Positions 58,392-61,172 of a stretch of 64,000 bases of DNA are shown one piece after another. A model generated the notes under the pieces. It ran no database searches, had not been told where the DNA came from, and saw only the letters and a list, made by a program, of their open reading frames with translations. A program made the position numbers and the translations under genes. The stretch comes from Escherichia phage ECO103 4-12-1, in the sequence record OR844650; one strand, 5' to 3'. Numbering within the stretch: position 1 is the first letter of the stretch; each line of letters begins with the position of its first letter.

Positions 58392-58763
58392 TTATGACAT
58401 ACGCTTATTATGAATGGAATTATGAATGGATTTTAAATAATTATATAATTTTATCAATCCACTACCAGTAGCTACAAACAGTAGTGCTGTTGGTATCATA
58501 CATCCAAACATGGTTATTAATTCATGTATTTCCATACCATCACTATTTGGTCCCACATCAAATATAACAACCAAAACAACACCTAAAATGCTTAGACAAT
58601 AATATCCCATAAAGACCATAAAAGTGATATATCCGGCACTTGATTTAATATTACATAACATATTATACACTGGATTAATACAGAAGAAGTATAATAACCA
58701 TACCAGTGTTCCAGTACTGAACATAATAATTGAAATAATGGAAAATATCTCACGGTAACTCAT
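58392..58763 (-). CDS. small polytopic membrane protein
   Basis: ORF track; 3-4 hydrophobic helices. Confidence 0.6.
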   Translation of the reverse strand: MSYREIFSIISIIMFSTGTLVWLLYFFCINPVYNMLCNIKSSAGYITFMVFMGYYCLSILGVVLVVIFDVGPNSDGMEIHELITMFGCMIPTALLFVATGSGLIKLYNYLKSIHNSIHNKRMS

Positions 58764-58764
58764 A

Positions 58765-59127
58765 TTATTTCCTCATACCCAAACGTTGGTGGATTTCAGA
58801 GATCTTTATATACAATAGTACCACAAGGTGCAGTACTAAACAACATATAATTACGGCTAATACCAATGAACATATCATAAGACCGAAGGTTATTGTATTC
58901 AAAGAGGATGTGAACAGTCCAATTATTAATACAATAAAACCAAAATTGAATACTGTACCCAACACAGTATATGCTGGACTATATCTCTTTTGGATTACAT
59001 CATATATATTTGATAATGGTCGCTTATGGAAGTACTTCCCAATGCACACGAATGCATTCAGTGAGAAGATAAATGTATACGCCATTACTAGTAATTGACC
59101 AACGAAAGATAATTCTATCCCGTTCAT
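58765..59127 (-). CDS. small polytopic membrane protein
   Basis: ORF track 58765-59190; start moved to MNGIELSF to abut upstream gene. Confidence 0.55.
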   Translation of the reverse strand: MNGIELSFVGQLLVMAYTFIFSLNAFVCIGKYFHKRPLSNIYDVIQKRYSPAYTVLGTVFNFGFIVLIIGLFTSSLNTITFGLMICSLVLAVIICCLVLHLVVLLYIKISEIHQRLGMRK

Positions 59128-59128
59128 A

Positions 59129-59497
59129 CTAACCTCGTTTACGTTTTTTAATTGTACTGTGCATCTTTTCGAAATAGGGAACCAAAACATATTGAACAGT
59201 TTGCCAGATAACCATTAGATTATGCACTGCACCACCAAGGATACCAAACACTAGAACAATAATTGCCATAATAGGATCACCGTCTACCATACCCCATTTA
59301 AAGATATGTAAAATCCAAGCAATGACTAGACAAAATAAACTAAGCCAATACGTAATGAAAAATCCGGCTTGTAGTTCATAATCATCAGCAATTTCATCGT
59401 ATACCGTTTCTAAAAATGATACACAAAAGAATTTACCAATTATAACCACAGTACTAATAAACAACATAGCAGTTAAGATAATAAGAGCAATTTCCAT
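59129..59497 (-). CDS. small polytopic membrane protein
   Basis: ORF track; hydrophobic helices. Confidence 0.6.
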   Translation of the reverse strand: MEIALIILTAMLFISTVVIIGKFFCVSFLETVYDEIADDYELQAGFFITYWLSLFCLVIAWILHIFKWGMVDGDPIMAIIVLVFGILGGAVHNLMVIWQTVQYVLVPYFEKMHSTIKKRKRG

Positions 59498-59811
59498 TAC
59501 ATCCCTCGTTTACGCTTTTGATTGCGTCTAAATTCTGTTAGTCCACGGCTAATCGGCGGCATCAGACTACATAAAAAAGTAACAGTTGTTGGTAGTAACA
59601 TCAAGTCAATCATTGCAGTGTTATCTGGTGGATCAAAAACCAAAAAATACACACAAGAAACACTAATAATGGTTGAACCGATAAAAGGAATACAAAATTC
59701 TTTTATCTGTTTTTCAACATAATCAAACATCTTGAGTACAAATAAAAATCCAACCCAACACATAATGAAATAGAATGAATACAACGTGTAAATCAATGTT
59801 ACTATATCCAT
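59497..59811 (-). CDS. small polytopic membrane protein
   Basis: ORF track; 1-nt start/stop overlap. Confidence 0.6.
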   Translation of the reverse strand: MDIVTLIYTLYSFYFIMCWVGFLFVLKMFDYVEKQIKEFCIPFIGSTIISVSCVYFLVFDPPDNTAMIDLMLLPTTVTFLCSLMPPISRGLTEFRRNQKRKRGM

Positions 59812-60149
59812 TAGTACCTCGCATCAGGAACTTTAGCACGTAACTTATGAACGACTGGGAACAACAACAAACTTACATATGCAATAGTTGAACCCCAATA
59901 GAATACTAATACAATTGGTTCACCATTAGAACGGAAACCTCTACTAATCATTGAGTAGTGAATAATAGGCATAATCATCGCCATACCAAACCATGCGTGT
60001 AATTTTAATTGCAGCATGTTATCAGCGATGAATACTGAAATTGGTCGTTTAAAGAACCACATCAGAAAGTAGAATCCAGCACTAATAATATAGTACATGG
60101 TACTAACTTTCATATACCACGGCAGTAAGTGTAAAAAATATTCCATCAT
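59811..60149 (-). CDS. small polytopic membrane protein
   Basis: ORF track; hydrophobic helices. Confidence 0.6.
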   Translation of the reverse strand: MMEYFLHLLPWYMKVSTMYYIISAGFYFLMWFFKRPISVFIADNMLQLKLHAWFGMAMIMPIIHYSMISRGFRSNGEPIVLVFYWGSTIAYVSLLLFPVVHKLRAKVPDARY

Positions 60150-60493
60150 TCCTCCGGTATCTTGTTTCGAAGGTCAATCATAACACAACAAAGTTTAATG
60201 ATCAAGTGAAAAACTACACATATCATACCAATTGTTCCATAAACGACTGAAAAAGCAGGTAGTGCTTTTCCGGCTAGAACAGCCACAATACATGCAATCA
60301 ATGTTGATGCAAACAACGATTGATTAATGAAAGAATTCATAAAATCTTCACCATTACGCTTATAGAATTGTCGTTTAAAATACCATCCTAGAAACATAAC
60401 TACCCAAAATGTTACATAACCTGTTAGAATAATCCCTGCAATTGAATGTGCAACTGGACTACTCCTTAAAAACTCAAGATAAGCTTCAAACAT
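60146..60493 (-). CDS. small polytopic membrane protein
   Basis: ORF track; ATGA overlap. Confidence 0.6.
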   Translation of the reverse strand: MFEAYLEFLRSSPVAHSIAGIILTGYVTFWVVMFLGWYFKRQFYKRNGEDFMNSFINQSLFASTLIACIVAVLAGKALPAFSVVYGTIGMICVVFHLIIKLCCVMIDLRNKIPEE

Positions 60494-60831
60494 TAGAAGT
60501 CTCCGCGAATTTTATCTCTACCATGAATAATGAGATGGATTAAGTATACAACTAACCAAATGAACAACCCAAAGAATACAATATATTGTGAGATTGAGTT
60601 CAAGTGAGGATTAGCACAATAAATTAAGTGTGCCATAAGACCAACAATTGCAAACAAACCTTGAACAAGTGTGTAAAGAACTAGTGATGAATTCCTCACT
60701 GGATACAGTTTAAAAACAATTTTCTTTTTAAAATACCATAGTACTACAACTAGTGCATGATAAAAGAAAAAACCAAACAGATAAATCAAAGTAATACTAA
60801 GCATTGTATCTGACTTAAAGAATGTTAACAT
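60493..60831 (-). CDS. small polytopic membrane protein (paralog of 60831-61172)
   Basis: ORF track; 'MLTFFKSDTMLSITLIYLF..WYFKKKIVFKLY'. Confidence 0.65.
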   Translation of the reverse strand: MLTFFKSDTMLSITLIYLFGFFFYHALVVVLWYFKKKIVFKLYPVRNSSLVLYTLVQGLFAIVGLMAHLIYCANPHLNSISQYIVFFGLFIWLVVYLIHLIIHGRDKIRGDF

Positions 60832-61172
60832 TAGAAATCCCCTTTAATTCTATCACGAGCTTTAATAATAAAGTACATGCTACACACCAACAACCACACG
60901 ATTAGACCTGAAAACACAAGATATTGTGTAATGTGTGGTGTATTATCAATTTGTAACATGTAAATCGCATATGTCATCACACCAAATAAAATAAACCCAC
61001 CTTGGATAATACTATATAAAACTAAGACTACATTATCATCCGAATACAATTTAAAAACAATTTTCCTTTTAAAATACCACAGACTAATTACAATTGAATG
61101 ATAACACAAAAATACAAACATGTAAATTAGCGTGATACCAAGCATTGTATCTGAATTAAAAAACTCAAGCAT
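60831..61172 (-). CDS. small polytopic membrane protein (paralog of 60493-60831)
   Basis: ORF track; 'MLEFFNSDTMLGITLIYMF..WYFKRKIVFKLY'. Confidence 0.65.
   Translation of the reverse strand: MLEFFNSDTMLGITLIYMFVFLCYHSIVISLWYFKRKIVFKLYSDDNVVLVLYSIIQGGFILFGVMTYAIYMLQIDNTPHITQYLVFSGLIVWLLVCSMYFIIKARDRIKGDF

Follow-up and report, generated by a model that had tools for sequence, protein, structure and literature searches.

A family of small paralogous proteins, predicted to span the inner membrane three times, encoded in a tandem array of an Asteriusvirus jumbo coliphage

In the 64,000-nucleotide stretch of Escherichia phage ECO103 4-12-1 (record OR844650) analyzed here, which we call the window, the minus strand from 58392 to 61172 consists of eight consecutive open reading frames (ORFs), O8 to O1 in transcription order. 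Profile comparisons place all eight genes in one protein family, and together they form one minus-strand transcription unit under purifying selection. Databases already hold these sequences as hypothetical proteins and as separate PHROGs of unknown function; that they make up one family, whose types, topology, fold, and invariant residues can be defined, appears to be a new finding. We tentatively read the array as an early-expressed battery of diverged inner-membrane modules that would serve exclusion or counter-defense. By its DNA the window belongs to an Asteriusvirus, a 121Q/PBECO4-like jumbo coliphage with a genome of about 350 kb; it shares 85–99% DNA identity over this region with the Asteriusvirus jumbo coliphages (121Q, PBECO4, CRJP21, and others; 345–385 kb).

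Kinship among the eight proteins is visible at several levels. O7 and O8 are 54% identical, and a preliminary description of this DNA had already taken the last two genes for paralogs; the same relationship extends to all eight. Phages A4 and Turkey5 carry orthologs that are 26–66% identical and fall into seven orthologous types, T1 to T7, arranged in the same order. Single types are doubled in different phages: T1 in the window (O8 and O7), T4 in Turkey5, and T2 in K64-1. Profile–profile comparisons connect T1 with T2 (81%), T2 with T3 (96%) and with T6 (72%), and T5 with T6 (81%) and with T7 (71%), all through full-length, collinear alignments, against at most 5.5% in reversed-sequence controls. 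T4 is joined to the family through divergent members (K64-1 gp390 against T6, 8e-6; P0052 against T4, 1e-6). An iterated family hidden Markov model (HMM) scores true members at 32–75 bits, reversed sequences at no more than 14.8, and shuffled sequences at no more than 8.4. Among the 169 window ORFs of at least 60 residues, only the eight match this model (53–68 bits; next best 6.4), so tight a clustering being far beyond chance.

Outside the clade the family has no evident kin. Seven of the eight window proteins match a PHROG at E values of 1e-50 to 1e-70, the families concerned being 19454, 19046, 27396, 33258, 26405, and 27618, all of unknown function, and phrog_16874 (“membrane protein”); O2 has no PHROG match. 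We found no related family in Pfam, NCBIfam, or PADLOC, where the sole match, PycTM to O7, is not significant (E 0.018, 12.9 bits), and no related sequence or structure in the PDB, a sequence-profile search of which also gave no match.

The array, all of it on the minus strand, opens with the two T1 copies, O8 (60831–61172; 113 residues, copy a) and O7 (60493–60831; 112 residues, copy b; orthologs A4_228, Turkey5_53, and K64-1 gp388). O8, like the others a predicted inner-membrane protein with three transmembrane (TM) helices, its N terminus outside and its C terminus inside (N-out/C-in), is absent or truncated in about two-thirds of related records. There follow O6 (60146–60493; 115 residues, T2; orthologs A4_229, Turkey5_54, and K64-1 gp386/387) and O5 (59811–60146; 111 residues), which represents T3, the best-conserved type, in which an RSNGE periplasmic turn is invariant. 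O5 has an alternative ATG at 60149, and its start is probably the one at 60146 (MEYF…, 111 residues), which matches the ortholog starts. O4 (59497–59811; 104 residues, T4) is interrupted in the 121Q record, where a frameshift divides it. O3 (59129–59497; 122 residues) represents T5, the “core” type, with GKFFCV…YD after TM1 and H..IKKRKRG in the tail. O2 (58765–59127; 120 residues, T6) and O1 (58392–58763; 123 residues, T7; orthologs A4_234, Turkey5_60, and K64-1 gp392) complete the series. The start of O2 is almost certainly the ATG at 59127. A start at 59190 would give a 141-residue longest-ORF artifact, whereas 59127 has a GAGG Shine-Dalgarno sequence 5 nt upstream and falls 1 nt after the O3 stop; the O2 orthologs in 121Q (gp231) and ph0011 are annotated at 120 residues. 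With this correction the eight proteins measure 104–123 residues, where a range of 104–141 had first been given.

The genes are closely packed. Five neighboring pairs overlap by 1 nt (TAATG or TGATG), and two are separated by 1 nt; long overlaps do not occur. The eight ORFs lie at the coordinates originally proposed; the preliminary description had spoken of overlapping starts and stops. Each gene is preceded at 5–10 nt by a Shine-Dalgarno-like purine run that lies inside the last codons of the preceding gene, a packing consistent with translational coupling. Relative to phage ph0011, the ratio of nonsynonymous to synonymous substitution rates (dN/dS) is 0.13–0.36 for each of the eight genes and 0.03 for the adjoining ATPase gene; the minus-strand frame of O2 (dN/dS 0.33) is kept in A4 and Turkey5. 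From these ratios it follows that the eight are real genes and that they evolve comparatively fast. The preliminary description, of an operon that encodes small polytopic membrane proteins and has a promoter of its own, is upheld, and the operon turns out, moreover, to be a single paralog family conserved across the clade.

Public records treat the locus unevenly. The CRJP21 and UE-S1 records miss O2 and call a spurious plus-strand ORF instead (window 58910–59098, plus strand), and annotation errors are present in OQ708376, ON568341, and many T4-like records. The array proteins are labeled “hypothetical protein”; in CRJP21 the label is “regulator of chromosome condensation,” which is clearly wrong, and “DNA condensation protein” is a further label that occurs. 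The NrdC.10-like ATPase encoded next to the array is mislabeled “thioredoxin” or “transcriptional regulator FleQ.”

Hydropathy analysis gives three hydrophobic segments in each of the eight proteins, including O5, whose TM1 and TM2 are rich in aromatics and weakly hydrophobic. Hydropathy, together with AlphaFold models of O6 and O3, predicts the TM helices announced in the preliminary description, at three per protein rather than three to four. Among the 52 family members with three clear hydropathy peaks, lysine and arginine together number 7.8 per protein in loop 1 and the C-terminal tail versus 0.8 in the N terminus and loop 2, a strong positive-inside signal for N-out/C-in topology. The AlphaFold model is moderate for O6 (predicted local distance difference test, pLDDT, 71) and confident for O3 (pLDDT 93.4; predicted template modeling score, pTM, 0.79). 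In the O3 model, TM1 (residues 2–24) is followed by a short cytoplasmic helix (27–38), by TM2 (40–66) and a tight periplasmic turn, and finally by TM3, a 46-residue helix (76–121) that extends into the cytoplasm. As modeled, then, the array proteins have three TM helices, a periplasmic N terminus, and a basic cytoplasmic tail, in about 100–130 residues across lineages.

Besides the initiator methionine, four residues are invariant in the T5/T6-like members of all lineages: K22, F24, Y33, and H113 in O3 numbering. The first three belong to the G-K-F-F…Y-D segment just after TM1 and the fourth to the tail, and all four lie on the predicted cytoplasmic face. In the profile of the whole family, TM1 closes with G-[KW]-[FY]-F; TM2, a short turn, and TM3 come next, and the protein ends in an [HR]xx[IL]-basic tail. 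Conservation is slightly higher in loops and tails than in TM helices, and this holds for each of the types.

The distribution of the family is narrow. Searching 5.8 billion proteins with the profile of the eight recovered 31 clusters, whose long contigs all have the size of a jumbo-phage genome. When 1.84 billion representatives were scanned exhaustively with HMMER, 32 clusters emerged, all of 99–130 residues and matched over their full length save for one 56-residue fragment; in a scan of IMG/VR with the T5 profile 121Q was the only match. Divergent members occur in Klebsiella phages RaK2, K64-1, Muenster, and fENko-Kae01; in Salmonella phages Munch, 7t3, and SE_PL; in Escherichia phage EJP2 and, weakly, Erwinia phage Hallingskeid; and in metagenomic contigs, one of them 324 kb long. 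Judging by these searches, only Rak2-like jumbo phages that infect enterobacteria carry the family.

In all lineages examined, the genes follow immediately after the NrdC.10-like ATPase gene as a tandem array (the window, A4, Turkey5, K64-1, Munch, EJP2, and two metagenomic contigs, L014 and L015), and the arrays usually converge on RCC1-like genes. The number of members varies: eight each in the window, Turkey5, and K64-1; seven in A4; six or seven in EJP2; three or four in Munch; 11–12 in L014; and 9–11 in L015. The K64-1 array comprises T2 (twice), T1, T3, T4, T5, and T7, and because K64-1 keeps these types, they predate the split between Asteriusvirus and Alcyoneusvirus. By these assignments T1–T7 are retained in Asteriusvirus and mostly in Alcyoneusvirus. 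Type composition and order differ in L014, L015, and EJP2; L015 lacks T1 and T3 and has three T2-like copies, and most EJP2 members fit no type. Even among close Asteriusvirus relatives, only about one-third have the second T1 copy. Divergence is fast, the array proteins being 33–53% identical to those of Turkey5. The pattern across genomes is that of birth-and-death evolution, in which arrays of 3–12 copies evolve by duplication, divergence, and loss.

Three further observations belong to this survey. First, a conserved micro-gene for a soluble protein of 42–44 residues (MKPEQWIIDDMR...LLQWYVKV..SKE) lies inside the arrays of K64-1, Munch, EJP2, and the two metagenomic phages (L010:3178-3306, L011:5689-5817, L013:4880-5008, L014:1496-1627, and L015:7731-7865); the window, A4, and Turkey5 lack it. 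Second, we considered the Salmonella SD phages as evidence of dispensability, since T2 is cut to 90 nt and the ATPase is fragmented in SD-1_S14; these records (310–326 kb) are themselves heavily fragmented, with 677 features, so that assembly errors are possible, and we dropped this reading. Third, ph0011 labels its O7 ortholog “Phi92_gp233” and its ATPase “Phi92_gp231,” which seemed to lead to phage phi92. The gp233 of phi92 is an unrelated protein of 75 residues that gives no alignment, and the ph0011 label is therefore an annotation artifact.

When these proteins are made bears directly on what they might do. The sole intergenic gap, 61173–61239, contains TTGACA-17-TACTAT at 61230–61202 by consensus scan. 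A promoter at 61202–61230 had been proposed before; the site is indeed there, is preserved in five relatives, and is one of a motif class that recurs. The full element occupies 30 nt (61201–61230, minus strand; TTGACAGTACTA-N9-AGTACTATA), with TTGACA at −35, a 17-nt spacer, TACTAT at −10, and two embedded AGTACT palindromes, and it is nearly unchanged in CRJP21, 121Q, ph0011, UE-S1, and the divergent Turkey5. In the motif class (TTGACAGTACT-N10-AGTACTATA) the AGTACT palindromes overlap the −35 and −10 hexamers. Three full copies are present in the window versus 0 expected, at 18107–18136, 18383–18412, and 61201–61230, all on the minus strand and upstream of small genes, each leading through a short leader and a GGGAGAA-like Shine-Dalgarno sequence into the small gene; half copies number six versus 0.63 expected, with instances at 6187–6198, 14745–14756, and 14804–14815 (minus strand). 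In sequence, then, the array promoter is of a phage-specific, sigma-70-like class.

RpoD-like promoters are the mark of the early host-takeover region of the related phage CBB, whose late genes rely on an ATAAATA motif (PMC5259590). This T4-type late core does not occur on either strand of the whole 64-kb window, versus about 47 copies expected; the 8-mer TATAAATA is likewise absent from the window (15.3 ± 3.7 expected), and TAAATA is its most under-represented hexamer (27 found versus 80 expected). ATAAATA is also missing from the array loci of A4, Turkey5, K64-1, Munch, and L015. In the 215–265 kb region of 121Q, which includes structural genes, ATAAATA was found seven times versus 44 expected, and TATAAATA three times, at least two of these upstream of genes. 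Such counts suggest a genome-wide purge of spurious late promoters. Because the sigma-70-like promoter is conserved and the window has no ATAAATA, array transcription would seem to be early or middle, not late. The phAPEC6 virion proteome contains no array protein; this absence and the promoter type would be compatible with early, non-virion, inner-membrane proteins.

Other short sequences are also missing from the window. The palindromic hexamers GGATCC, CTGCAG, TCCGGA, CCATGG, and GGTACC, as well as GAGGAG/CTCCTC, are each absent versus 12–18 copies expected, a pattern that has the look of classic restriction-site avoidance.

The preliminary description had raised a role in lysis timing, which the array might fill as a set of holins, antiholins, or pinholins. 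Proteins of 104–123 residues with three predicted TM helices, N-out/C-in topology, and a charged C-terminal tail do have the layout of class I holins. Moreover, the endolysin of the clade, described as signal-arrest-release (SAR)-like in the CBB paper (PMC5259590), has an N-terminal TM segment and would need a membrane-depolarizing partner. Nevertheless, a lysis role is disfavored, because the promoter is of an early, sigma-70-like type, the 64 kb of the window lack the late core altogether, and the lysis genes are distant: in 121Q the array (gp224–232) lies at 113.6–116.4 kb, some 130–140 kb from the spanin gene (gp511, 245.3 kb) and the lysozyme gene (gp532, 254.2 kb). At E ≤ 0.1 neither Pfam nor NCBIfam gives a match to a holin family, and the dual-start motif is absent except for the MM of O5, which its orthologs lack. 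To our knowledge, eight to twelve holins in tandem would be unprecedented, which also counts against this role. We regard it as very unlikely. The other roles raised in the preliminary description, superinfection exclusion, channel formation, and membrane remodeling, are still candidates.

The reading that we tentatively prefer, a battery of membrane modules, runs as follows. Host RNA polymerase would transcribe the array early in infection, and the proteins would insert in the host inner membrane, where they may act as related yet diverged modules. The conserved cytoplasmic juxtamembrane patch, made up of the G-K-[FY]-F with which TM1 ends, the Y-D helix, and the H-x-x-[IL]-basic tail, could give all of them a common activity or partner, and the freely varying TM helices could give them different specificities within the membrane. 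The likeliest purpose would be not lysis but the protection, at the envelope, of the long infection of a jumbo phage, either by superinfection exclusion or by neutralizing membrane-acting effectors of host defense or abortive infection. Birth-and-death evolution, plasticity of copy number, fast divergence, the early-type promoter, and a distribution limited to phages are what lead us to this proposal.

Several considerations weigh against it. The early timing is read from promoter type alone. The dN/dS values of 0.13–0.36 give no sign of the gene-wide positive selection expected of an arms race, and the contrast in rate between array and ATPase is confounded by recombination, since relative to 121Q the array DNA is 95% identical and the ATPase 58%. 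The tiny periplasmic loops would offer little surface to contact the ejection proteins of an incoming phage. Finally, both the near-constant order of the seven types since before the Asteriusvirus/Alcyoneusvirus split and the tight, coupled-looking packing of the genes would fit a multi-subunit complex equally well or better.

Such a complex, a hetero-oligomeric inner-membrane assembly of co-assembling paralogs, perhaps together with the ATPase or with the soluble protein O0 encoded after the array, is the main alternative, which we take seriously although with considerable doubt. The 1-nt overlaps and gaps with their embedded Shine-Dalgarno sequences suggest coupled, roughly equimolar translation, and the seven types correspond one to one as orthologs and keep their order in the window, A4, and Turkey5, as for the most part they do in K64-1. 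In some TM helices the conserved positions recur with helical periodicity, and synteny with the ATPase is constant. A fixed machine is harder to reconcile with a subunit set that is not fixed across lineages (3–12 members of varying types), with the loss of one T1 copy in many close relatives, and with ATPase alleles only 58% identical beside near-identical arrays, which argues against tight co-adaptation; T4-like phages, moreover, carry the ATPase without the array. More doubtful still is a specific form of this idea, in which the array proteins would build a ring or channel specific to jumbo phages, with the invariant lysine, phenylalanine, tyrosine, and histidine as its cytoplasmic collar, lacking cellular or viral homologs and with a subunit repertoire expanded and remodeled by lineage.

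The ATPase also figures in a further proposal, that the proteins are membrane tethers or organizers whose tails and patch recruit phage DNA, the ATPase, or anionic lipids for early replication or host takeover. The NrdC.10-like P-loop/AAA ATPase (61240–62013, minus strand; phrog_1250; with its own promoter-like site at 62071–62042) is the upstream neighbor of the array in every lineage examined. Its weak AAA similarity to DnaA/Hda/Orc-like proteins is not significant. Constant adjacency to this ATPase, conserved residues on the cytoplasmic side, and a strongly basic tail would suit a tether. However, the tails comprise just ~10–19 residues, the similarities of the ATPase fall far below threshold, the ATPase allele swaps independently of the array, and there is no evident reason for 8–12 diverged copies. 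We consider tethering unlikely.

The ATPase gene itself exists as two alleles about 58% identical that are shuffled among phages with about 95% identical arrays (for example, 121Q and the window), and as these alleles were recombined between phages, we dropped the ATPase as a rate yardstick. Ancient synteny with T4 was also considered and rejected: next to nrdC.10, T4-like phages encode no array but NrdC.9 and NrdC.8, both soluble. In the window, DNA homology to the closest relatives ends at about 62052. Beyond it, on the plus strand (62056–63081), lies a gene for a 341-residue protein with DUF4379 treble-clef zinc fingers and an endonuclease-like C terminus, probably a homing-endonuclease-type insertion that marks a recombination boundary.

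At the other end, O0 (57687–58349, minus strand), a soluble protein of 220 residues (phrog_34359) with its own Shine-Dalgarno sequence, is probably encoded by the last gene of the array transcript; O0-related proteins come after the array in Turkey5 and EJP2. A4 and K64-1 have a different protein in this position, unrelated to O0, namely a DUF1190 lipoprotein (A4 gp235, L003:7465-8016; K64-1 gp394, L010:6156-6743) with a lipobox, of the YgiB/YjfM outer-membrane type (Pfam E 4e-32 for A4). Between O1 and O0 there is a 10-bp hairpin (58362–58385; ATCCAGTACT / AGTACTGGAT) built, like the array promoter, on the AGTACT palindrome. Its T-run is on the plus strand only, and it is therefore no obvious terminator of the array transcript; it may terminate antisense (plus-strand) transcription or act as an element of RNA processing or stability. 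Toward the end of the operon run RCC1-like genes of the plus strand (55976–57706), in convergent orientation. The final paralog among them is apparently split into ORFs of 74 (57217–57441) and 111 residues (57371–57706) in different frames, perhaps as a frameshifted pseudogene or through a sequencing error.

Whatever the array does, its recognition merges six PHROGs of unknown function and one protein without a PHROG into a single clade-wide membrane family, and it corrects public annotations by restoring the missed gene O2 and removing the spurious “regulator of chromosome condensation” and “thioredoxin.” Rak2-like jumbo phages (121Q, PBECO4, RaK2, K64-1, and others) are in development for therapy, and more than 80% of their genes are unannotated. 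As a battery for exclusion or counter-defense, the array would give lytic phages an unusually clear example of a multigene “immune-like” family; as a complex, it would represent a new membrane machine built by phages. We found no published description of the array, and the literature on Sharanji, phAPEC6, fEgEco12, CBB, PA5oct, and spanins makes no mention of it.

Comparison with known systems shows both likenesses and differences. The PHROGs contain the same proteins, but hold them as separate families, whereas here they form one paralog family with common topology and motifs. Class I holins of the lambda S105 type resemble them in size (~100–120 residues), in having three TM helices, N-out/C-in topology, and a short charged cytoplasmic C terminus, and in being phage-encoded, non-virion proteins of the inner membrane. 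Unlike holin genes, however, the array has eight tandem paralogs with no Pfam holin similarity and no conserved dual start, stands ~130–140 kb from the endolysin and spanin genes (121Q), and carries an early, sigma-70-type promoter. T4 Imm and similar proteins are small, early exclusion or immunity proteins that do not enter virions and lie largely within the inner membrane. The array proteins, being small, phage-encoded, probably early, non-virion in phAPEC6, and by prediction largely buried in the inner membrane, would be generally similar, but they have three predicted TM helices and come from a conserved array of 3–12 paralogous genes rather than from a single gene; they match no known superinfection-exclusion (Sie) or Imm family in Pfam, the PHROG annotations, or NCBIfam. 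Finally, phAPEC6 and 121Q have other tandem paralog arrays, of RCC1-like and fiber genes (PMC7247149). Those arrays, too, expanded by tandem duplication and divergence to lineage-specific copy numbers, but they encode large soluble or virion proteins, whereas the products here are tiny, non-virion integral membrane proteins with cytoplasmic motifs.

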